Positions 6,637-16,837 of a stretch of 64,000 nt of DNA are shown here, piece by piece. Numbering within the stretch: the first letter of the stretch is position 1; each line of letters begins with the position of its first letter. Origin of the DNA: an uncultured virus (IMG/VR IMGVR_UViG_3300008108_000086) (lineage: Duplodnaviria > Heunggongvirae > Uroviricota > Caudoviricetes); the IMG/VR virus record IMGVR_UViG_3300008108_000086. One strand, 5' to 3'. Both the position numbers and the translations under genes were made by a program. Below the pieces are notes generated by a model that made no database searches, had not been told where the DNA came from, and worked only from the letters and a program-made list of their open reading frames with translations.

Positions 6637-6774
6637 TGGCCCAAGTACCTGCACTATTTCTACCTAAAAAGAAAACTGAGGAGAAACCTCAAGTAAAGAA
6701 TTCCGGTAAGAATCGGAAGAAAAAGAAACCCGATTCTACCACAAAAGTTTCAGCATTATTTCAAAGGGGAATTG

Positions 6775-7539
6775 ATGGTTACAAAAAAAACAACGGCCAG
6801 ATACGCAGCGGAACAACTACAAGAGGATGAAAATAAGACGAGGCATCAACCCGCAGTAAACAATTCATTAAAGATTAAACCAGACCATCTAAAGACGTTT
6901 GAACCATTAACAGAGAATCAAAGATTATTCTTTGAGATGTATAAAGGCGGTGCCTACTTCATGGGACTATTCGGTAGTCCTGGAGTAGGCAAAACCTTTT
7001 TGGCACTATATAAATCAATAGAAGAAGTTTTGGATAAATCGAATTCATTCAAACAAGTGGTGGTTGTTAGGTCACTTGTTCAATTACGTGATGTTGGTTA
7101 TTTGCCTGGTAATCTTGAAGAAAAACAAGAAATCTATGAATTACCTTACAAAGAAATTGCGGCCACACTATTTGGTCGTTCTGATGCATGGGATAGATTA
7201 AAAGAACAAAACCATGTACGATTTATATCTACTACAGCGATTCGTGGTATCTCTATTGATGATGCAATTATTATTGTAGATGAGAACCAAAACTTGAACT
7301 GGTCAGAGGTGAATACAATTATTACCCGTGTCGGACACAGGTCAAAAATTATATTTTCGGGTGATTTTAAACAGACAGATTTAATTAAGAGTAACAAAGA
7401 CCAAACAGCATTCCATAGTTTCTTAGAAGTGGCAAGAAAGATGCCATCCTTTCAGGAAATATACTTTACACCAGACGATATTGTTCGTTCAAGTCTAGTA
7501 AAACAATGGATCGTGGCCTGTGAAGACTTAGGTTACTAG
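6775..7539 (+). CDS. phoH: PhoH-family ATPase
   Basis: Walker A GSPGVGKT, GYLPGNLEEK, IRGISI, IIVDENQN, ITRVG, SGDFKQTD, DIVRS. Confidence 0.92.
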   Translation: MVTKKTTARYAAEQLQEDENKTRHQPAVNNSLKIKPDHLKTFEPLTENQRLFFEMYKGGAYFMGLFGSPGVGKTFLALYKSIEEVLDKSNSFKQVVVVRSLVQLRDVGYLPGNLEEKQEIYELPYKEIAATLFGRSDAWDRLKEQNHVRFISTTAIRGISIDDAIIIVDENQNLNWSEVNTIITRVGHRSKIIFSGDFKQTDLIKSNKDQTAFHSFLEVARKMPSFQEIYFTPDDIVRSSLVKQWIVACEDLGY

Positions 7540-7574: not shown

Positions 7575-9026
7575 ATGATTTTTGAAATTCAAGCCACACG
7601 TTTCGAAGACGGTGATACACAAACATTTTTCTATGACAACATGGCTAATGTGTTGAAGGACTCCGATGGTAATCTTTTTGAATATCCACAGGACCAAATG
7701 CCTCAACATAGACTCAAACCATACAAATCTTTTGATAAGAATAGACCACTCAAGAAATCTAAATTAATTAGTCATTTAAAAATTCAAATGGGATTGAGTT
7801 GTAACTATTCTTGTGATTATTGTTCACAGAAATTTGTTGAACGTCAGCCAGAAACTTCCAAAAAAGACATTGATGTTTTTATGGAAAAATTAAATGTATT
7901 ACACTTTGATGAAGATGTTGGTCTGAAAATTGAATTTTGGGGTGGTGAGCCTCTTGTTTATTGGAAAACAATGAAACCATTGGCTGAGGCCATCGCTGAA
8001 AAATTTGATGGTTGGAAAACCAAACCACAATTCAGTGTTATCACCAATGGTTCGATACTAACTGATGAAATTATTGATTGGTTAATGATGATGGATTTTG
8101 CTGTGTCTATTTCACATGATGGACCAGGTCAATTTGTACGTGGTCCTGATCCGTTTGATGATCCTGAACAGAAAGAACGTATTTTGGGATTCTATCGTAT
8201 GATGACTAGACTTGGTAAAAGTTTTAGTTTCAATTCAATGTTGAACTCTAAAAATCAAAGTCGTAAAGAAATCTATGATTGGTTCGTAAATCTTACTGGT
8301 GACGAAAATGTTATCTTGGGTGAAGGTTCAATGGTTGATGCCTATGACGAAGAAGGTATATCATACTCACTAATCACAAAACAAGAACATTTTGATTTTA
8401 GACAACGTGCCTTTGGTGAGTTGTATGGCACAGAAGGTCAAATTGGTTTCAGAGCACAATTAGGTAAAATTGATGATTTTGTGACTGGTGTATTGTCTCA
8501 TAGAGAATCTAAATATTTGGGTCAAAAGTGTGGTATGGATGATGAACACACTTTGTCTGTCGATTTACGTGGTAACGTTATGACCTGCCAGAATGTGAGT
8601 TCTTTGGAAATTTCCAAAAACGGTGAATCACACCATGGTGGAAACTTGGAAGATTATGCGAAAGTTGAATTGAAGTCTGTTACACATTGGTCTAACCGAA
8701 AAGAATGTCCAGAGTGTCCAGTGTTACATGTCTGTAAAGGTGCATGTATGTTCTTGGACGAAAAGTTTTGGGATGTTTCTTGTGCTAATGCATACTCTGA
8801 TAACGTGGCATTATTTGCGGCCGGATTCACAGTCATGACAGGTGGTTATATTCCGACACTAATTAAGAGTGATACTCTACCTCTTGACCGACAAGATATC
8901 TTTGGTAATATATTCACGCACGAAGAAGATAAACAGAAAAAAATTATACCAATCAAGGTAATTAAAGAGATTATTGGTGAAGTTGATGAAGTTTTGGTTT
9001 ATGGTAAATCTCGTTTAGAAAACTAA
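7575..9026 (+). CDS. radical SAM/SPASM-domain protein (peptide/protein maturase-like)
   Basis: CNYSCDYC (CX3CX2C), FWGGEPL, ITNG, SISHDG; C-terminal SPASM cysteines CG...GNVMTC...CPECPVLHVCKGAC...C. Confidence 0.9.
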   Translation: MIFEIQATRFEDGDTQTFFYDNMANVLKDSDGNLFEYPQDQMPQHRLKPYKSFDKNRPLKKSKLISHLKIQMGLSCNYSCDYCSQKFVERQPETSKKDIDVFMEKLNVLHFDEDVGLKIEFWGGEPLVYWKTMKPLAEAIAEKFDGWKTKPQFSVITNGSILTDEIIDWLMMMDFAVSISHDGPGQFVRGPDPFDDPEQKERILGFYRMMTRLGKSFSFNSMLNSKNQSRKEIYDWFVNLTGDENVILGEGSMVDAYDEEGISYSLITKQEHFDFRQRAFGELYGTEGQIGFRAQLGKIDDFVTGVLSHRESKYLGQKCGMDDEHTLSVDLRGNVMTCQNVSSLEISKNGESHHGGNLEDYAKVELKSVTHWSNRKECPECPVLHVCKGACMFLDEKFWDVSCANAYSDNVALFAAGFTVMTGGYIPTLIKSDTLPLDRQDIFGNIFTHEEDKQKKIIPIKVIKEIIGEVDEVLVYGKSRLEN

Positions 9027-9059
9027 ATAACTACAACAACATTATAGAGAGTAGAAAAA

Positions 9060-9950
9060 ATGCCACTACCAGCACCAGGTCAACCTATCGGATTTTCAAA
9101 CATTAATGCAGAACTTGGCCGAATATATACCGTTCCTACGGAATTGACTTTTTTAAATGGTTTTATAAAACCAGCTATAAGACCAGGTACATCAAATTTA
9201 GGTTCTTTTGGTGGGTTGAGATATTATAGACAGAATAATGCTGGAAATTGTAATAACGTAAACAATACCGCAAAAAATTGTAATTGTGGTAATATTCAAT
9301 GTAATAAAACCAATAATTGTACCGCAGTAAATTGTGCAAACTGTGATACTCAGGCTTGGTTACAAACTGGAGACTGTCAGTTATCAACAACACCCGTATA
9401 CAACTGCACATCAAACCAAAATTGTTTTTCTTATAATTGCAATTGTTCAAAGATTATTTGTACCAAGTTGTTTGATTTGGGATTGATGAAGAAAAACATT
9501 TTTGAAGCAGACCAAGCATTTGGTGAACGTTTGCAAAAAACTAATCCAGATATCTACAATGGTTATCGTGCATGGGCAGAAATTGTTGTTGATTGGATGG
9601 ATGGCAAAGGTCCTAAGATGATGCCTTGGATGTCCGATGAAGAATTTAGTGCAGCTGCAAAGAAATGGTCCATCACTTGGGCTCACGATATTGCAACACC
9701 TTGGGCAGAAGAAATGGCATACTTGATGGGTGAAAAGGAAACAGGCAGTCTGACAGGTAAAATGATGTTTGTGTTTGGCACACCAATCTGTAAGGTAATT
9801 GGTGTATGGCAACGTTGGTTTGGACCAAGTAAAAAAGAACCTGGTTTCTTAAAAGGTGCTGGCCTTGTTGTAATTTTTGTAATGTTCAAATTGGTTGCAG
9901 AACTAGGTCGTTTTATTGAGAGATTTATTCCAAAGAAAAAGGTGGCATAA
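9060..9950 (+). CDS. Cys/Asn-rich protein, candidate substrate/precursor of the radical SAM enzyme
   Basis: N-terminus MPLPAPGQPIGFSNINAELG; 12 Cys in about 67 aa mostly as N-C; C-terminal KIICTKL domain with terminal hydrophobic helix. Confidence 0.7.
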   Translation: MPLPAPGQPIGFSNINAELGRIYTVPTELTFLNGFIKPAIRPGTSNLGSFGGLRYYRQNNAGNCNNVNNTAKNCNCGNIQCNKTNNCTAVNCANCDTQAWLQTGDCQLSTTPVYNCTSNQNCFSYNCNCSKIICTKLFDLGLMKKNIFEADQAFGERLQKTNPDIYNGYRAWAEIVVDWMDGKGPKMMPWMSDEEFSAAAKKWSITWAHDIATPWAEEMAYLMGEKETGSLTGKMMFVFGTPICKVIGVWQRWFGPSKKEPGFLKGAGLVVIFVMFKLVAELGRFIERFIPKKKVA

Positions 9951-10240
9951 TGACGACATATTCTAGTATAAGACCGGTTAAAATATTGATTAACAATCTG
10001 GATTATACAGATGAACATCTGAGACATTTTTTTAACACATATAGTTCAAATGCCTTTGACTCAATGACGCAACAAAAAAAAGAACGTGTTTTTGAACTGT
10101 TAACAAAACATGAAAATTTACTAACAAAAATTTTTGGGAACGCTTTGGCCGAAAGTGCGGTTTTTGTTCCAAAATTGACTAGAGATAATGTTGATAATGC
10201 ATATGTTAGAGAATATAAAGAATGGTTGGAAAAACAATGA
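9950..10240 (+). CDS. hypothetical protein (paralog of next gene)
   Basis: 96 aa, TAATG coupling; ends YKEWLEKQ. Confidence 0.65.
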   Translation: MTTYSSIRPVKILINNLDYTDEHLRHFFNTYSSNAFDSMTQQKKERVFELLTKHENLLTKIFGNALAESAVFVPKLTRDNVDNAYVREYKEWLEKQ

Positions 10241-10623
10241 AAAAATATTCACATACTTTACTTCCAACAATAAAAACATATAATAATGAAAATATTTTAT
10301 ACGATAAAACATTAATACCAAATTTTGTAAAAAAAACATTCTTCGAAAGAGTTGCTGCTTTAAGTGAAGAAGAAAAAGATGAATTTTTCCGCATGAGTTA
10401 TGAGTATGAGGATGTATTAGTGGAACTATTTGACGGACAGATTCAGAAATTCACGGAAGCTGGTTGGACAACGGCAAATGATCCAATTTTTAGAAATCCA
10501 ACAGAAGAATATGAAAATTATGCATCTTTACCGAAAGATGCTGATTTGACAGATGAGGAACATCAGTTGAAATTGGAACACCTAAGACAATTTAAAGAAT
10601 GGTTTGAAAAACAAAATTACTGA
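10237..10623 (+). CDS. hypothetical protein
   Basis: ATGA-coupled start at 10237; ends FKEWFEKQNY. Confidence 0.65.
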   Translation: MKKYSHTLLPTIKTYNNENILYDKTLIPNFVKKTFFERVAALSEEEKDEFFRMSYEYEDVLVELFDGQIQKFTEAGWTTANDPIFRNPTEEYENYASLPKDADLTDEEHQLKLEHLRQFKEWFEKQNY

Positions 10624-10631
10624 TTTTTATT

Positions 10632-11324
10632 ATGACAAAAGATGACAGAGATGCGTACCATTGGTACCAAAATGCACAGAATATGTTTTGGCAAAGTCCG
10701 GTGTGGGAAGTGCAAACTAAATTCGATGAACAATTTAATGAGACATTATTGGATGAAATTTATGGTATTGGTAAAGATATTGTATTGGGTAAAGATAAGG
10801 ATCCAAACAACAGTATATGGGACTACAGTAGACCCAACTTAGATATACTCAAACAAGAAATTATAGACATTGTAACCAAGAAGATTGTGCAAAATATTCC
10901 ACAACTCAGGATGTTAAACATTCGTGGTTGTGAACACTTCATGGGTTGGGTCAATGTGCGTGAACCAGGAGAACGCTTAGAGGTGCATGGACACACCGAA
11001 TCAGCAATTGCAGCAACGTATTATATCAAAGTTAAAGAAGGTTGTGGTGACCTTGTATTATTTGATTCCGCACAGGCCATTGATTGGTTAAACAATACAC
11101 TAAGTAGTACACCAAAATTAAGAGAACGTAGATATAAACCGGTTGAAGGTAGATTGATATTCTTTCCGTCATATGTGTTGCATGGAGTTGACGAAAATAA
11201 ATCCGATGACCTACGTATTTCACTATCAACCGACCTAAGAAAAGTGGTAGATAAAAATGCACAAAATACGGTAATTTTAAAATCTTGGGCTGGTCGCATG
11301 GCAAAGATTAAAGAATGGAAATGA
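10632..11324 (+). CDS. 2OG-Fe(II) oxygenase-like protein (TIGR02466-like)
   Basis: GWVN...HGH...ATYY...GDLVLFD...EGRLIFFPSYVLHGV...RISLS. Confidence 0.85.
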   Translation: MTKDDRDAYHWYQNAQNMFWQSPVWEVQTKFDEQFNETLLDEIYGIGKDIVLGKDKDPNNSIWDYSRPNLDILKQEIIDIVTKKIVQNIPQLRMLNIRGCEHFMGWVNVREPGERLEVHGHTESAIAATYYIKVKEGCGDLVLFDSAQAIDWLNNTLSSTPKLRERRYKPVEGRLIFFPSYVLHGVDENKSDDLRISLSTDLRKVVDKNAQNTVILKSWAGRMAKIKEWK

Positions 11325-11694
11325 TGTTTACCAAGCTGGAAAAATCTTTTGATGTATAATCCCACCACACACAGATACTGAAATTATCACCTCTATAAAT
11401 TTCTATATGCAAACCGAAGGTTGCACAACAACTTTTTATAAACCGAAGGTGGAGATTCCAAAAACTGTACAGGTTGAGAATCAAACCAATGGACATATAT
11501 ATTTTGAAGAAGATTTAATTGAAGTTGGTAGTTTTGTTGCTAAAGATTATGATATTTGGTTACTTGATGTAAGTCAAATACATGGCGTTAAGGGTAAATT
11601 TAATTTACGTAAAGCCATTACCTTAGGAACTTTTGTTCATAAGTATCAGGACGTACTAGAAATGTTAAAGGAAACCAATAATGTCGTTTGTTAA
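11321..11694 (+). pseudogene. 2OG-Fe(II) oxygenase-like gene with internal deletion/frameshift
   Basis: ATG 11321 gives MMFTKLEKSFDV*; another frame from 11356 gives IIPPHTDTEIITSINFY...LLDVSQIHGV...RKAITL, collinear with the downstream paralog but lacking roughly 55 codons. Confidence 0.65.
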
Positions 11695-12352
11695 ATTAAA
11701 ACATACATATGAATATATGCCACACACCATTATACCACAAGGTAAGGCTGATTCATTTGCTGGAAAATATGGACTAGGTGTAAGACACAGTACAATTTGG
11801 ACACCAGAACCTGAAAAAGAAGTGTTGTATAAAGTTATACCTGAAAGGTATTGGAAAGATTTTCAAGTAACAAGAATGTCTATTAATAGTTTGTTGTTAC
11901 CACACGTTGATAATGATTTTATAACAACAATCAATTTTTATTATGACCCACAGAATTACAGGACAGTTTTCTTCAAACCAAAACCAGGAGCAAATTCTTG
12001 GAAGACAGAAGAAGATAGACACCATGGTGTTGATGGGGGAACAATTATAGACCAAAATGTTAATGTTGAGGAATTAAAAACAAGAGTTAAAGAATTTGTG
12101 TCTGAAAAACAAAATATGCCAACTTGTGAAGAAATAACATACGTTGATGCGGTATACACATTTGATGATGTTTATGAAATTGGATCTTTTGTGGCTCAAA
12201 CTGGAGAAGCATATATGCTGGACGTTAGAGTTGCACATAATGTTGAACCATTAGGTGGCGATGCAAAACTTAGAAAGGCTTTTGCACTTAGAACCAAATT
12301 ATATGAATATAGTCAGGTGTATGAAATGTTACAAGAAACTGGAAACTTATAA
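11681..12352 (+). CDS. 2OG-Fe(II) oxygenase-like (cupin/DSBH) protein
   Basis: LLPHVD (HxD)...TINFY...LDVRVAHNV...RKAFALR. Confidence 0.7.
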   Translation: MSFVKLKHTYEYMPHTIIPQGKADSFAGKYGLGVRHSTIWTPEPEKEVLYKVIPERYWKDFQVTRMSINSLLLPHVDNDFITTINFYYDPQNYRTVFFKPKPGANSWKTEEDRHHGVDGGTIIDQNVNVEELKTRVKEFVSEKQNMPTCEEITYVDAVYTFDDVYEIGSFVAQTGEAYMLDVRVAHNVEPLGGDAKLRKAFALRTKLYEYSQVYEMLQETGNL

Positions 12353-12362
12353 AGGATAAGAA

Positions 12363-13157
12363 ATGTTTTTCGAAAAATTAAACTATACAGTAGATATTGA
12401 AAAATTAAAACAAGAAGTGAAAGATAGTGTTTTCACTTTGGGTGACCAAGTTATTCAAGGCGAAGAATACGAAACACCGAAATATAATGGATTTGGTGGA
12501 TGGAGTTTACTGTGCAAAGAAGCCACATGGACTGGCGGTTGGGAAGCTGTTCAATTAGAAAAAGGACAATCATTAGAATCATTCTTACCAACAAATGAAT
12601 TAGTCGCAAAAGCATACAAATTTTTTAATATATCACATGGTCTAGAACATGATAAACCTACCGAAGCATATGTTGGTGAAATTAAAAAAGTTCTGGACGA
12701 TATACGTGAGATGGGTTTTTATCCTACAAGAGCAAGGGTTACTTGTTTGAAAGCACACTCAAAATCTTTGGTGCATAGAGATGCTGATGAAACGGAATAT
12801 ATGGCTCGTATTCATATTCCATTATTCACAAACAAGAAATGTGTGCATATATCCCAAGGTAAAAATTTGCATATGCCTGCTGATGGTAGTGTCTGGATTC
12901 TTTGGGTGAATCAATGGCACCAAATTCGAAATGACTCGGATGAAGACCGATATCATATCATCATGGATGCATATGACACCAAAAAGGTAACAAAACATTT
13001 TAATTATGACGGAGAATTCGAACAATTACAAAATTTTGTAAGAGGGTTCCGACAAAAAATTGATGATGCTGAATTAACAGATGAAGATATTGATTTTTTT
13101 GAGGCAATTAGAGAAAGATATGTTACCAAAAAAGTTAGAGATAACGAATTCATTTAA
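12363..13157 (+). CDS. aspartyl/asparaginyl beta-hydroxylase-like dioxygenase
   Basis: VHRD...RIHIPL...HMPADG...WHQIRN...DRYHIIMD. Confidence 0.8.
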   Translation: MFFEKLNYTVDIEKLKQEVKDSVFTLGDQVIQGEEYETPKYNGFGGWSLLCKEATWTGGWEAVQLEKGQSLESFLPTNELVAKAYKFFNISHGLEHDKPTEAYVGEIKKVLDDIREMGFYPTRARVTCLKAHSKSLVHRDADETEYMARIHIPLFTNKKCVHISQGKNLHMPADGSVWILWVNQWHQIRNDSDEDRYHIIMDAYDTKKVTKHFNYDGEFEQLQNFVRGFRQKIDDAELTDEDIDFFEAIRERYVTKKVRDNEFI

Positions 13158-13160
13158 ATT

Positions 13161-14678
13161 ATGACCGATATACATGGTATTGTTTTTACCGGTATGGAAC
13201 GAACTAGAACAATTAGTCGGCCGGCCGGTGCAGCAAGATTAAGAACTTTTTTAGAACCACATGGTTATAACCTTGAGGTCGTTGATTACTTTGGTAACTT
13301 CACTGAAGAAGAAATTGAAAGAGTTTGTGATAGATTTATTGGACCAAAAACTTTGTTTGTTGGTATCAGTATTACGTTCATATATGCTTTTGATAAATTG
13401 AATCATTTATTCAAATACATCAGAGAAAAATATCCACAAGTGAAAACATTGATTGGTGGTAATGAGACACCAATTGATGGTGTAGATTTAACACAAGTTG
13501 ATAGAGTTTTTTGGGGTTATGCTGAAGAAGCCGTATTACACTACCTTAAATTTCTAAACAAAAAACGTTTGGATGATTTGAAATGGGTACCATACAAAGG
13601 AACACTATCTATCAATGCAGAAATGCTATATAAAAATGATGATAGTGATTTAACAATCAAATGGTTAGAAAGTGATTTAATCAAAAACAATTTCTTGCCG
13701 ATTGAAATTAGTCGAGGATGTATATTCAGATGCCGATTCTGTGCCTTCCCATTGTTAGGCAAAAAGAAAAATGATTATATTCGCCATGTGGATAATTTAG
13801 CCGCAGAGTTGCGTAGAAATTATGAAATGTTTGGTGTGAATAACTATTGGTTCAATGATGATACATTCAATGACAATGTGGTTAAATTGGATTATGTTGC
13901 TGAAGCTATTGCAAAGAGTGGTATTAAGATTACTTACACAGCATTCTTACGTGCAGATTTGATTGAACGTTTTCCAGAAACTATACCTATGTTGGCTGAC
14001 ACTGGTTTGGTTGCTGCAACATTTGGTTTGGAAACATTTCATCCTGAAGCAAAGAAGGCCATCGGTAAAGGCCTAGATAATGAAAGACAGTTTGAAGCGA
14101 TTAGACAGTTAAAGAAGTACAAACCAACCTACACTTATACAGGAATGATTTGTGGTTTACCTGGTGAACCCCTATCTAGTGTATACAAGAGTCAGAAAAT
14201 GTTATTGGACCAAAATTTTGAAGTGTTTGACAATTGGGATTGGTGGCCCTTGGTTATCAGAAAAAATTCTGTTAGTCGCCTAAGTGAATTTGAAAAGGAA
14301 TATGAGAAGTGGGGTTATAGTGAATTATTACCCGGAGAATATACGATACCAGAAGGTGATGATGATACACGATATCACAACGATGACAGTAATTTGTTAA
14401 TTTGGAAAAATAAATACTTAAACTATTTCAATTCAAGAAAAATTACAACCGATTTAAATGTGGAAACAGAACAACACCGAATTAAAGCAGGCAAATCAAT
14501 TTATGGTAATGCTGATAAAGGTGTCAGTATCAACCATGATGTATTTGAATTGGTTGGTATGGGAGTTGATATTAAAGATATCATTGATGGAACATTCGAC
14601 AAAACTTTTTTGAATAAAAAAATTGAAGAAGCGGATCAAACTATCCTTGAATATAAAAGATTAAAGTTAGGATTATAA
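13161..14678 (+). CDS. B12-binding radical SAM protein
   Basis: N-terminal cobalamin-binding-like region (GAARL...EVVDY, VGISIT, LIGG); IEISRGCIFRCRFC; DDTF; GLET; GLPGE. Confidence 0.85.
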   Translation: MTDIHGIVFTGMERTRTISRPAGAARLRTFLEPHGYNLEVVDYFGNFTEEEIERVCDRFIGPKTLFVGISITFIYAFDKLNHLFKYIREKYPQVKTLIGGNETPIDGVDLTQVDRVFWGYAEEAVLHYLKFLNKKRLDDLKWVPYKGTLSINAEMLYKNDDSDLTIKWLESDLIKNNFLPIEISRGCIFRCRFCAFPLLGKKKNDYIRHVDNLAAELRRNYEMFGVNNYWFNDDTFNDNVVKLDYVAEAIAKSGIKITYTAFLRADLIERFPETIPMLADTGLVAATFGLETFHPEAKKAIGKGLDNERQFEAIRQLKKYKPTYTYTGMICGLPGEPLSSVYKSQKMLLDQNFEVFDNWDWWPLVIRKNSVSRLSEFEKEYEKWGYSELLPGEYTIPEGDDDTRYHNDDSNLLIWKNKYLNYFNSRKITTDLNVETEQHRIKAGKSIYGNADKGVSINHDVFELVGMGVDIKDIIDGTFDKTFLNKKIEEADQTILEYKRLKLGL

Positions 14679-15337
14679 TGTTTGTTTATTGCCCACCAAA
14701 AGAGATTCCAAAAATTGAATCTCAAACTTTTCCTGACGGGAAAAGATATTATGTCACACCTGACGGCAAGAAATTACCATCGGTGACCACAGTGGTGGGA
14801 GCACAGAAAAAAGAAGCCATCATGGCATGGCGCCGTAGAGTTGGTGATGAAGTTGCAAACAAAATCTCCAGACAGGCCACATCCCGTGGCACCAATATGC
14901 ATACGTTGTGTGAATACTATTTGAACAATGAACCTAAACCACCAGGAACTGTTATGCCTGATGCCAAAGAGATGTTCATATCAATCAAACCATTACTAAA
15001 CAAAATCAACAATATACACTACCAAGAGGTTGGATTGTGGTCCTCCCAACTTGGACTGGCAGGTCGTGTAGACTGTATTGGTGAGTATGAGGGTAAACTG
15101 TCTGTAATTGATTTTAAAACATCAAAGAAGGCTAAAGACCGTGATTCTATTTTGGATTATTTCTGGCAAACAACTGCATATGCATTGATGTATGAAGAAT
15201 TGGTTGGCCAACCAATTGATGAACTGGTAATTATTATGGCTGTGCAAGATGCACCACCATTAGTTTTTAGAGAAAAAACACAAGACCACATTGAAGGTCT
15301 GGTTAAGGCAATTGATTTTTATCACAAAAACAGTTGA
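14678..15337 (+). CDS. PD-(D/E)xK exonuclease of T4-like phages
   Basis: PSVTTV, RGTNMH, AGRVDCI, IDFKTS, Q..AYA motifs. Confidence 0.85.
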   Translation: MFVYCPPKEIPKIESQTFPDGKRYYVTPDGKKLPSVTTVVGAQKKEAIMAWRRRVGDEVANKISRQATSRGTNMHTLCEYYLNNEPKPPGTVMPDAKEMFISIKPLLNKINNIHYQEVGLWSSQLGLAGRVDCIGEYEGKLSVIDFKTSKKAKDRDSILDYFWQTTAYALMYEELVGQPIDELVIIMAVQDAPPLVFREKTQDHIEGLVKAIDFYHKNS

Positions 15338-15362
15338 CACAATAAATAAGATATGTTATAAT
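15334..15362 (+). promoter_or_regulatory. sigma70-type promoter for tmRNA, with a late-type ATAAATA motif in the spacer
   Basis: TTGACA 15334-15339, 17 bp spacer, TG-n-TATAAT 15357-15362. Confidence 0.85.
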
Positions 15363-15368
15363 GTGTTT

Positions 15369-15672
15369 TTATGGTTGTACGAAGCAACTAGAAATGTGTT
15401 CTGGACGGGGGTGCGAATCTCCCCACCTCCACCAAAAACATGGCAGAGAAAGTCGCCTAACTAGCGGCCTCACTCATATGAGGATACACGGTAAGTCACC
15501 TTTTACTGTAGTGGTAATTGCAAATACTTACGCCGATATGAGATGTTTTTGATGGGGGTGCATAGTTTCGACAGGGCAAATAGTACAGAAGTGGACAACT
15601 CATCAGAGAAGATGTTAAAACTAAATCAAGTAAACGCAAACGACTCACAGTTCGCATTAGCAGCCTAAACGC
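15369..15672 (+). ncRNA. ssrA: circularly permuted (two-piece) tmRNA
   Basis: Acceptor piece ends GGGGG-TGCGAAT-CTCCC-CACCTCC-A-CCA (15434); coding piece starts GGGGGTG (15554) followed by CATAGTTTCGAC; the two strands pair with G3:U70; tag ANDSQFALAA* at 15636-15668; both ends approximate. Confidence 0.88.
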
Positions 15673-15700
15673 AAAAGAAATTAGAATCGCAGATGAATTA

Positions 15701-16258
15701 ATGGAACTGGTACCAAAATTGCGTGACGAATTTTTAGAATATCACAAAGACTTTCACACCACATTCAAAGGCGGCACATCATACGCAGCAACAAATCCAT
15801 TGGCCATATTAGATGAAAAAGAAAAGAATGATTGGAAGGTTGAAGGATTACGTTATGCCTTGCCGGAACAACGTATTGAACAAAACTTTTTCCTTGAACC
15901 AAGAGTACGCAGTATATTCCCAACAGCCTCAACATTGACACAACAATACATTGCTCATGCTGGTTGCAGTGGTTATAGTGTACTTGAAGCAGGTGGTGTT
16001 ATTAATCGACATGCAGATATAGAAAATAAATCACACAATACAATAAGAATACATATACCATTAATAGTACCTGAGGGTGATGTTTATTTTGAAGTGGATG
16101 GTAAAGAATTGGAATGGTCCGATTTATTTGGATTCGATAACGGGCAGTTACATAGTGCTCACAACAAATCACAAAAAAGACGTTTAATTTATATCATAGA
16201 TATAACACGGTCTTTTTTAGGAATTCCAGCATTTGGAATAGGTTCGTTAGGTTCCTGA
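15701..16258 (+). CDS. aspartyl/asparaginyl beta-hydroxylase-like dioxygenase (N-terminus possibly truncated)
   Basis: YSVLEAGGVINRHAD...IRIHIPL...FDNGQLHSAHN...RRLIYIID. Confidence 0.82.
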   Translation: MELVPKLRDEFLEYHKDFHTTFKGGTSYAATNPLAILDEKEKNDWKVEGLRYALPEQRIEQNFFLEPRVRSIFPTASTLTQQYIAHAGCSGYSVLEAGGVINRHADIENKSHNTIRIHIPLIVPEGDVYFEVDGKELEWSDLFGFDNGQLHSAHNKSQKRRLIYIIDITRSFLGIPAFGIGSLGS

Positions 16259-16294
16259 ATACCTATCATTTTGTTTAACAACTAGGAGTTAATT

Positions 16295-16837
16295 TTGAAG
16301 AAAATCAGTTTTATTTTGGCCTCTTTGGTCATCAGTGCTTCAGCAATGGCACAAGGTTATGGTTCATTGGAATATTCAGATGAAACAAATCGTGCAACAG
16401 ATGCGAAAAACATCAAAGAAGCTGTTGTCATTGGTACTAAAGTTGGTTCTACTGACTATAGCCTTAAAATGGAAAACAGCCAAGCTGCACTCGGCAGTGG
16501 TTCCATTACACAAGGTTTGGAAGTTCGTGTGAAACAATCTATCGGTGCATTTTACATTGGTGGTCGTTTGGGTGAAAGAATTAGTAGTTCTACACACTTC
16601 TCACATTATGCAGTTGATGCTGGTGTGAAATTCCCATTGGTTGCTGGTTTGACTGGTGATGTTGGTGGTCGTTATCGTAATGCGTTTGACACTGCAAACA
16701 ACTATCAAACAACCCGTGTTCATGCAGCAGTTGGTTATCCTTTGACTAAAAAAGATTCTGTTGCAGTTCGTTGGAGCCGTACATACGGTGACGAAGAAAA
16801 AGATGCATGGCGTCTACAGTACACACGTAGTTTCTAA
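16295..16837 (+). CDS. outer-membrane beta-barrel protein (porin-like)
   Basis: TTG start with AGGAG RBS; Sec signal peptide ending SAMA; alternating amphipathic strands; C-terminal YTRSF aromatic signature. Confidence 0.75.
   Translation: MKKISFILASLVISASAMAQGYGSLEYSDETNRATDAKNIKEAVVIGTKVGSTDYSLKMENSQAALGSGSITQGLEVRVKQSIGAFYIGGRLGERISSSTHFSHYAVDAGVKFPLVAGLTGDVGGRYRNAFDTANNYQTTRVHAAVGYPLTKKDSVAVRWSRTYGDEEKDAWRLQYTRSF

Follow-up and report, generated by a model that had tools for sequence, protein, structure and literature searches.

A phage-borne radical SAM/SPASM cassette tied to Asn-Cys repeats and its probable role in maturing a fibre-type protein

A 64,000-nucleotide stretch of DNA from an uncultured T4-like phage (IMG/VR record IMGVR_UViG_3300008108_000086; this whole stretch is called the window below) carries a cassette of modification-type genes. 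At its head stand a radical S-adenosylmethionine (SAM) enzyme of the SPASM type and a protein dense in Asn-Cys dipeptides. The enzyme is genetically tied to this Asn-Cys protein, and in its relatives to tail fibres with (Asn/Asp-Cys)n ends. From its sequence the cassette would, on balance, serve the post-translational maturation of a phage fibre-type protein, most likely by Cys-to-Asn/Asp thioethers together with hydroxylation, and this is the reading favoured here. The matured protein is probably a component of a virion fibre or of an adhesin. A first-pass annotation of the window, made from the letters alone, had described a co-oriented, tightly packed block between phoH and an exonuclease gene, and all the genes that it listed were found there on the + strand (Table 1).

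The enzyme has the CX3CX2C motif at C76/C80/C83 and scored 36.7 bits against PF04055 (cut-off 29.5). Its SPASM assignment was made on a C-terminal pattern for two auxiliary clusters, CX9-15GX4C ... CX2CX5CX3C ... C, and all seven Cys are in place (C319-x13-G-x4-C338, C378-x2-C381-x5-C387-x3-C391 and C403), in agreement with the first-pass annotation. Neither motif varies in any of the 9 aligned relatives, the most distant of which is 44% identical. The top NCBIfam matches are the maturases PapB (78.2 bits), geopeptide (76.2), CcpM (68.5) and QhpD (63.9), each far under its cut-off; SCIFF (51) and the anaerobic sulfatase-maturating enzyme, anSME (42), score lower. With every thioether-maturase match so far below its cut-off, the enzyme is, by sequence criteria, a separate family. 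For QhpD (TIGR03906, 1.1e-17) the cut-off is 453 bits and for anSME (TIGR03942) it is 349; no sulfatase gene was seen in Pfam and PHROGs scans of the window's proteins. The nearest solved structures are 8vpo and CteB. Homologs of the enzyme fill at least 2763 clusters at E<=1e-10, none of them named, and enzymes with 44% identity occur in the cultured Ralstonia phage RSP15 and Achromobacter phages JWF and 2-1.

The Asn-Cys protein contains 14 Cys, and 13 of these fall within residues 62-134, a segment of 73 aa. The residue before the core Cys is Asn in ten cases, Asp in one and Gln in one, which puts Asn or Asp before 11 of the 13. None of 10000 shuffles of the core reached its 10 NC dipeptides. 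Four NxxC motifs are present, and the NCNC runs are interleaved NxxC motifs. An alignment of 44 homologs has 12 Cys columns with full or at least 90% conservation. Among the window's 238 open reading frames (ORFs) of at least 60 aa it is the sole genuine one of its kind, the other Cys-dense ORFs being short or antisense frames. A Cys/Asn-rich protein with 12 Cys in about 67 aa had been reported by the first-pass annotation; its composition stands, and the count is replaced by the one given above.

Linkage in close relatives was followed in 76 IMG/VR loci with enzymes 63-100% identical to that of the window. Counts were taken over loci with at least 1 kb (n = 75) or at least 5 kb (n = 64) of sequence downstream. 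The Asn-Cys gene directly follows the radical SAM gene in all 75 loci of the first group. Across the second group the core of the system is made up of the radical SAM/SPASM enzyme, the Asn-Cys protein, the 223-aa double-stranded beta-helix (DSBH) oxygenase and the first gene resembling Asp/Asn beta-hydroxylases (AspH-like). The B12-type radical SAM, the two small paralogs and the second AspH-like gene, which the first-pass annotation had counted with the rest, occur in only 19 to 25 of the 64 loci (Table 1) and are clade-specific accessories. The B12-type enzyme is confined to loci whose first radical SAM is at least 81% identical. Other tailoring-type genes are inserted between the enzyme and its partner in some relatives, namely two fatty-acid-desaturase genes (L063:9437-10866) and a sulfotransferase gene (L035:9478-10125). 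Movement of the cassette as one unit is indicated by L076 and L078, where phoH directly adjoins the exonuclease gene and the cassette comes after both.

Distant relatives were collected with an enzyme-alignment scan of one genome per prokaryote species, which gave 80 loci. Most of these are prophage-like loci of Limnohabitans, Polynucleobacter, Burkholderia and other Burkholderiales and lie beside lysis and tail genes. The region upstream was analysed in 56 loci (scan loci plus two phages, with enzymes 34-56% identical) that have at least 3.5 kb on that side. A strict test, which asked for a same-strand upstream ORF with at least five Cys and at least four NC/CN dipeptides in 30 residues, was passed by 47 of them. 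Six more have shorter terminal runs (e.g. ...YNCNCACDCC), so 53 of the 56 have, upstream and on the same strand, an ORF whose Asn/Asp-Cys run is terminal or nearly so. Only 57 of 7980 ORFs of at least 60 aa passed the strict test, and 56 of these lie on the enzyme's strand in its locus. Of those 56, 54 are upstream and the remaining two are the downstream Asn-Cys genes of the T4-like contigs L080 and L081. The expectation of the first-pass annotation that homologs of the radical SAM co-occur with N-C-rich ORFs is thus borne out in both sets, and oxygenases accompany the pair in close and distant loci alike. Chance adjacency is untenable for the core because enzymes with as little as 34% identity retain the pairing, in T4-like phages as well as siphophage-like prophages and despite differences in gene order.

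The runs themselves are simple. In 59 (XC)n runs with n of at least 4, the residue X is Asn at 130 positions, Asp at 30 and Ala at 12, with Asn or Asp at 160 of 201 positions overall. The stop codon immediately follows 32 of the 59, and for most others it is no more than five residues away. The ORFs that bear them are mostly tail fibres of 190-620 aa with collagen repeats (PF01391, 3.5e-43) and conserved fibre motifs. Ten were tested against PHROGs: six matched tail-fibre families and a seventh a 'structural protein' family. In RSP15 and JWF the enzyme gene lies among annotated tail and fibre genes. The fibre protein JWF gp028, encoded two genes upstream of the enzyme, contains ...QNCNCDCNCNCSC, which runs directly into a self-cleaving Hint domain, and the non-terminal runs of L090 and L093 are likewise followed by such a domain. 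The terminal position of the runs, or the Hint domain directly after them, suggests that a free C-terminus matters. In L083, L084 and L135 the gene directly upstream of the enzyme codes for a short homolog made of the N-motif and core and ending ...NCDCNCDCNCNCG; its neighbour on the other side in L083 is a long-tail-fibre-like gene that has a Peptidase_S74 domain.

Two further gene families belong to these distant neighbourhoods. An Oxy_5-like family, of the same Pfam family as the 10632-11324 product of the window, sits between fibre and enzyme in 61 of 82 loci; Pfam Oxy_5 or Oxy_3 models matched 6 of 12 sampled ORFs from that interval. In 55 of 82 prophage-type loci the Asn-Cys-ending fibre is followed, ahead of the enzyme, by a 270-aa family (e.g. 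L104:5101-5928; L001:7314-8129), which may be a fibre assembly or tip component. A relative of the 270-aa family was found neither in the window nor among the T4-like loci of IMG/VR.

In the window the run is carried by a smaller protein of three parts: an N-terminal motif (aa 1-58), the Asn-Cys core (aa 62-134) and a helical C-domain (aa 131-296). The N-motif (MTLPxSGxIxxSxINxEIG...L, first ~30-45 residues) heads 661 representative proteins in a library of 1.84 billion, and its carriers include Gly_rich_2 and fn3 proteins of 300-700 aa. Two of its top matches were set aside as unrelated, one of 4382 aa with HYR-type repeats (Pfam) and one of 523 aa with a tandem repeat recognised by eye. The C-domain (last ~165 residues, from KIICTKL) recurs behind glycine-rich and other N-terminal parts; it also terminates Gly_rich_2 proteins and is found on DUF4815-type phage proteins. 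In Synechococcus phage SynMITS9220M01 it ends a 616-aa glycine-rich protein, after poly-Pro/poly-Arg linkers, beside fibre genes. Given this modular recurrence of N-motif and C-domain, the Asn-Cys core occupies the place of the glycine-rich domain in other family members.

The AlphaFold2 (AF2) model of the C-domain is helical, with a predicted local distance difference test (pLDDT) score of 71-85. For the Asn-Cys protein, searches of BFVD returned homologs only, and a protein atlas returned unnamed viral clusters at 0.86-0.89. The C-domain could serve as a membrane tether during maturation, as a removable assembly domain (analogous to Hint and S74 in related loci) or as a virion anchor. As a separate observation, the segments encoding the N-motif (9060-9194) and the C-domain (9450-9947) represent widespread, unnamed phage modules that have no Pfam family.

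Under the favoured reading of the cassette as a fibre-maturation system, the chemistry would run as follows. The enzyme, with three [4Fe-4S] clusters, would cleave SAM reductively and then abstract hydrogen at an acceptor residue; the most plausible site is the beta-carbon of an Asn or Asp just before or close to each Cys. Bonding of the acceptor carbon to the Cys sulfur would follow, and through successive thioether (ranthionine-type) cross-links of this kind the Asn-Cys core would become a covalent knot that resists reduction. Multiple Cys-to-Asn/Asp thioethers are favoured by analogy, on account of the maturase-family matches and the precedents of PapB, CrpC and NxxcB. The DSBH oxygenases (the 11681-12352 family, 12363-13157 and usually 10632-11324) may hydroxylate side chains of the core, most plausibly Asn or Asp. 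In this clade only, the B12-type radical SAM may add methyl groups (C-methylation). In the prophage relatives the run caps the fibre itself; in the window it is held by a small separate protein with fibre-type flanking modules.

A wider version of this reading can be put forward only tentatively. Several unrelated phage lineages might apply the chemistry of peptide antibiotics to their own virions, with a dedicated radical SAM/SPASM enzyme and 2-oxoglutarate (2OG) oxygenases turning an (Asn/Asp-Cys)n run at the fibre tip into an interlocked ladder of thioether rings with hydroxylated residues. It is conceivable, at a similarly low level of confidence, that this covalent, reduction-proof knot holds or tunes the host-binding end. 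The suggestion that terminal placement, a Hint domain or the helical C-domain each supply the free or processed C-terminus that the chemistry needs is equally speculative.

Several points weigh against the fibre-maturation reading. The structural module of the window begins near 20 kb and the cassette lies outside it, in the phoH-exonuclease region. Three distant loci lack a convincing partner: L100 and L159 have no run, and the RSP15 side fibre ends in two pairs only (...NTNCQCGN). In L082, where the enzyme is 60% identical and at the contig start, no Asn-Cys ORF was found in the 5.5 kb downstream, the upstream side being off the contig; a Cys-poor 234-aa protein, a halogenase-like gene and oxygenases follow instead (L082:1466-4636). 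As to the enzyme, the Pfam SPASM model gave no match at E<=0.01, and the scores fall outside both the PapB family (NF047865, 6.7e-22; 78.2 bits against a cut-off of 340) and the CrpC family (TIGR04463; 45.6 bits against 525). Enzymes of the SPASM type also form C-C and C-O links, formylglycine and cyclopropanes, and with products so varied homology cannot fix the reaction. For the Asn-Cys protein, the AF2 fold of the core is of low confidence (pLDDT <50). Matches of the C-domain in the PDB were uninformative (best matches Z <6, helical bundles and membrane hairpins), and its transmembrane-like helix would suit a protein of the cell membrane no less than a component of the virion. Finally, the B12-type radical SAM and the second AspH-like gene, being clade-restricted, are linked to the substrate by position alone.

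The best placed of the alternatives, unlikely as it is, accepts the pairing and changes the chemistry: the Cys run could bind metal or Fe-S clusters, or the enzyme could make formylglycine, C-C or C-O cross-links or another change. The JWF record labels its homolog an anaerobic sulfatase-maturating enzyme, and anSME, DynA, YhhB and GrrM cyclophane synthases are among the NCBIfam matches of the window enzyme. The best solved relative, 8vpo, is cited in a paper on radical SAM cyclopropyl synthases. With X and Cys alternating along a strand, every Cys would moreover point to the same side, as happens in the metal-binding needles of fibres such as T4 gp37. Against this, the thioether maturases take the four top scores, well above anSME. 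Moreover, the residues that precede Cys at most run positions, Asn and Asp, are the acceptors known for ranthipeptide enzymes such as PapB and NxxcB.

A second alternative, which we give a small chance, holds that the Asn-Cys protein is still modified by the radical SAM but acts in the infected cell as a membrane-anchored or released factor, such as a peptide of the ribosomally synthesised and post-translationally modified (RiPP) kind, or an exclusion or lysis-timing factor. Here the C-domain would provide a membrane hold or export. It does end in a hydrophobic helix (Kyte-Doolittle hydropathy over 19 residues, KD19, maximum 1.98 at aa 262-280), and the location of the cassette apart from the structural genes agrees with such a role. 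The conserved N-terminal region followed by the core resembles a leader and core, and short forms of 131-156 aa exist that stop right after the core. The distant relatives speak the other way: their runs end tail fibres of 190-620 aa and not small peptides, and the N-motif and C-domain are common to large fibre-like or glycine-rich proteins. Pfam and PHROGs scans of the cassette showed neither a protease gene nor an exporter gene. The first-pass annotation had left the choice between a virion appendage and a released peptide undecided; the fibre-ending runs and the company of the flanking modules favour the appendage.

The weakest alternative, that the enzymes are unrelated auxiliary genes acting on small molecules, lipids or DNA beside a Cys-rich neighbour placed there by chance, could appeal to the 2OG oxygenase arrays of unknown role that are common in cyanophages (PMC2938197, available parts), to the LpxO-like gene after the transfer-messenger RNA (tmRNA), to the desaturase, sulfotransferase and halogenase-like genes gained by the block in relatives and to the clade restriction of the B12-type radical SAM, but is very improbable in view of how far the pairing persists across enzyme divergence, phage types and gene orders. 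For the accessory genes alone, chance adjacency may still be the explanation.

Three 2OG-like genes, one of them broken, and two Asp/Asn beta-hydroxylase-like genes, one in the block and one after the tmRNA, had been named by the first-pass annotation, and each was recovered. The 10632-11324 product exceeded the PF13759 cut-off (66.5 bits against 27), and the 12363-13157 product that of PF05118 (38 bits against 22.6); the gene after the tmRNA (15701-16258) reached 54.5 bits in the latter family. All three are accordingly classed as 2OG-Fe(II) oxygenases. The 11681-12352 product has no Pfam match. In 31 relatives its residues H75, D77, H186 and R198 are invariant, and its AF2 model (pLDDT 81.8) is cupin/JmjC-like. 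Foldseek placed the model near NO66, MINA53, JMJD5 and RmlC/cupins at E ~1e-3, with template modelling (TM) scores of only 0.3-0.4, and a profile of the 223-aa family found chance-level matches only (E 0.02) among PDB sequences. With moderate confidence it is predicted to be a DSBH oxygenase.

The broken gene is explained by a loss of 160 nt near position 11352 of the window (counterpart L003:11663-11822), which truncates a 179-aa oxygenase paralog. The remnant is 42% identical to the C-terminus of the 11681-12352 product. The 160 nt are present in two otherwise identical IMG/VR contigs (L003 and L004) and in a 90%-identical one, and contigs from 4 of 4 public runs carry the intact 179-aa gene and no joint. 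Since the sister contigs and the four runs are intact, the break in the oxygenase gene is particular to this record; the loss is either a rare variant or an artefact.

Of the accessory genes, the two small proteins are paralogs, as previously proposed (hhalign probability 98.6%, E 6e-16, profile-profile). The first-pass call of a B12-binding radical SAM at 13161-14678 is upheld in its radical SAM part (PF04055, 72.3 bits); the B12-binding model scored 29.0 bits, under its cut-off of 32.1, and many homologs carry a precomputed PF02310 annotation. The PhpK family also matched this protein (1.3e-27), with 96 bits against a cut-off of 600. Neither the B12-type radical SAM nor the AspH-like gene found a match by tblastn among cultured phages, and a megablast of the cassette against cultured phages returned nothing. 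New here are the division into core and accessory genes in the freshwater clade, the recognition of the B12-type radical SAM as a clade addition and the demonstration that sister contigs have an unbroken copy of the truncated oxygenase gene.

Table 1. Features of the cassette and its flanks (positions of the window) and their occurrence in 64 close IMG/VR loci with at least 5 kb downstream
Feature	Coordinates	Strand	Evidence or remark	Close loci
phoH (left flank)	6772-7539	+	PF02562 2.8e-37	
Radical SAM/SPASM maturase-type enzyme, 483 aa	7575-9026	+	PF04055 36.7 bits; phrog_1802 1.2e-58	
Asn-Cys protein, 296 aa	9060-9950	+	no Pfam, PHROG or NCBIfam match	64/64
Small protein, 96 aa (accessory)	9950-10240	+	paralog of the 133-aa protein	25/64
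Small protein, 133 aa (accessory)	10222-10623	+	paralog of the 96-aa protein	22/64
2OG-Fe(II) oxygenase (Oxy_5), 230 aa	10632-11324	+	PF13759 (2OG-FeII_Oxy_5) 3.1e-18, 66.5 bits; phrog_81 3.7e-28	56/64
Remnant of 179-aa DSBH oxygenase paralog	11315-11694 (95-aa ORF 11407-11694)	+	alignment with sister contigs, blastn	
Probable DSBH (cupin/JmjC-like) oxygenase-type protein, 223 aa	11681-12352	+	invariant residues, AF2 model; no Pfam match	64/64
AspH-like (Asp/Asn beta-hydroxylase-like) oxygenase, 264 aa	12363-13157	+	PF05118 1.9e-9, 38 bits	64/64
B12-binding-type (class B-like) radical SAM, 505 aa (accessory)	13161-14678	+	PF04055 7e-20	22/64
PD-(D/E)XK exonuclease (right flank)	14678-15337	+	phrog_298 2e-72	
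tmRNA (flank, outside the system)	15320-15691	+	Rfam	
Second AspH-family gene, 185 aa, LpxO-like (probably outside the core)	15701-16258	+	PF05118 1.5e-14	19/64

The window is part of a T4-like myovirus, recognised by its T4-type replication and baseplate/tail gene set (PHROGs). Matches include a gp32-type single-strand-binding protein (phrog_224, 8e-107), a helicase loader and a DNA end protector, and on the structural side baseplate hub, wedge, tail tube and the distal subunit of the long tail fibre. Related IMG/VR contigs reach 172-180 kb. Within the cassette the genes are separated by gaps of 0-83 nt. Half or more of the stretch's sampled sequence words occur in at least 19 public metagenome runs from freshwater or lakes (~14 studies), and many of these runs may be its source. 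One metatranscriptome run contains a fraction of 0.05 of these words, too little to bear on expression.

Downstream of the exonuclease gene, the tmRNA matched Rfam families RF01850 (beta_tmRNA, 93.7 bits) and RF04321 (114 bits); ARAGORN called no tmRNA. It also fits the Rfam permuted-tmRNA model, and its reading frame ends ...ANDSQFALAA. Near position 15672 its 3' part is 80 nt shorter than in the otherwise identical sister contigs (counterpart L003:16143-16222), and its Rfam score is 93.7 bits compared with 114.5 for L003. The best NCBIfam match of the following AspH-family gene is the lipid A hydroxylase LpxO (NF033391, 9.7e-10), below cut-off. It is succeeded by a gene for a 180-aa protein (the pair spans 15701-16837) with a signal-peptide-like start and a ...YTRSF end resembling that of outer-membrane beta-barrel proteins. 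A joint role of the LpxO-like hydroxylase and the 180-aa protein in altering the outer membrane of the host is conceivable.

The host range of a phage is set by the tips of its tail fibres, and to our knowledge folding, chaperones and metal ions have been regarded as the only influences on their shape. If the fibre-maturation reading is true, a dedicated and widespread set of enzymes adds a chemical layer to host recognition and virion stability, and radical SAM chemistry of the RiPP kind extends from small secreted peptides to the structural proteins of viruses. Were the wider, tentative version of the reading true as well, viruses would gain a new class of structural post-translational modification, with thousands of environmental phages as carriers. 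For enzymology, the homologs of the enzyme represent a large new family with an unusually simple repeat substrate. The system is directly testable, including in the cultured Achromobacter phage JWF.

The first-pass annotation knew of no characterised phage system of this kind, and the literature agrees: no description was found of a radical SAM enzyme coupled to Asn-Cys runs of phage fibres, in a search that left subscription-only papers and supplements outside its scope. Among known systems, QhpD makes Cys-to-Asp/Glu thioethers inside QhpC, a subunit that stays in a larger assembly (quinohaemoprotein amine dehydrogenase). It is likewise a radical SAM/SPASM enzyme, and the window enzyme matches its model. 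QhpC differs in being a periplasmic enzyme subunit with a quinone cofactor, without an Asn-Cys repeat and without a phage context. NxxcB joins Cys to an Asn that precedes it by three residues, through the beta-carbon of that Asn. PapB, the best family match of the window enzyme and the maturase of PapA (freyrasin), links Cys to the carbon adjoining Asp/Glu carboxylates and also to C-terminal residues, according to the available part of its description (PMC12373016). The products of PapB/PapA and NxxcB/NxxcA are short secreted Firmicutes peptides, whereas here the partner is a 296-aa protein or a whole tail fibre and oxygenases are present.

On the oxygenase side, the nearest parallel is the work of Iyer et al. 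2010, who described tandem dioxygenase arrays in cyanophages and predicted that beta-hydroxylase/sulfotransferase clusters of bacteria modify tail-collar-type and glycine-rich proteins (PMC2938197). Those arrays resemble the cassette in having several DSBH oxygenases in a row in T4-like phages; in the available parts of that paper they are described with neither a radical SAM/SPASM partner nor an Asn-Cys substrate.

The closest experimental precedent, outside phages, is CrpC/CrpA. CrpC of Methanococcus voltae (TIGR04463, Dieter et al. 2026) forms ranthionine links in the 29-kDa Cys-rich protein CrpA, as stated in the available part of the paper (PMC13692751), to which the following points are also limited. 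The system is archaeal, and the paper mentions no phage and reports no oxygenases. The modified motifs of CrpA are ACAGM, CAVD and CPLVL, with Cys before the acceptor, whereas in the runs described here Asn or Asp directly precedes Cys. The likenesses lie in the architecture: CrpC is a SPASM enzyme with three [4Fe-4S] clusters, encoded beside a Cys-rich protein and not a short peptide, and CrpA has an N-terminal recognition region ahead of a Cys-rich C-terminal part (PMC13692751), a layout comparable to that of the Asn-Cys protein of the window.

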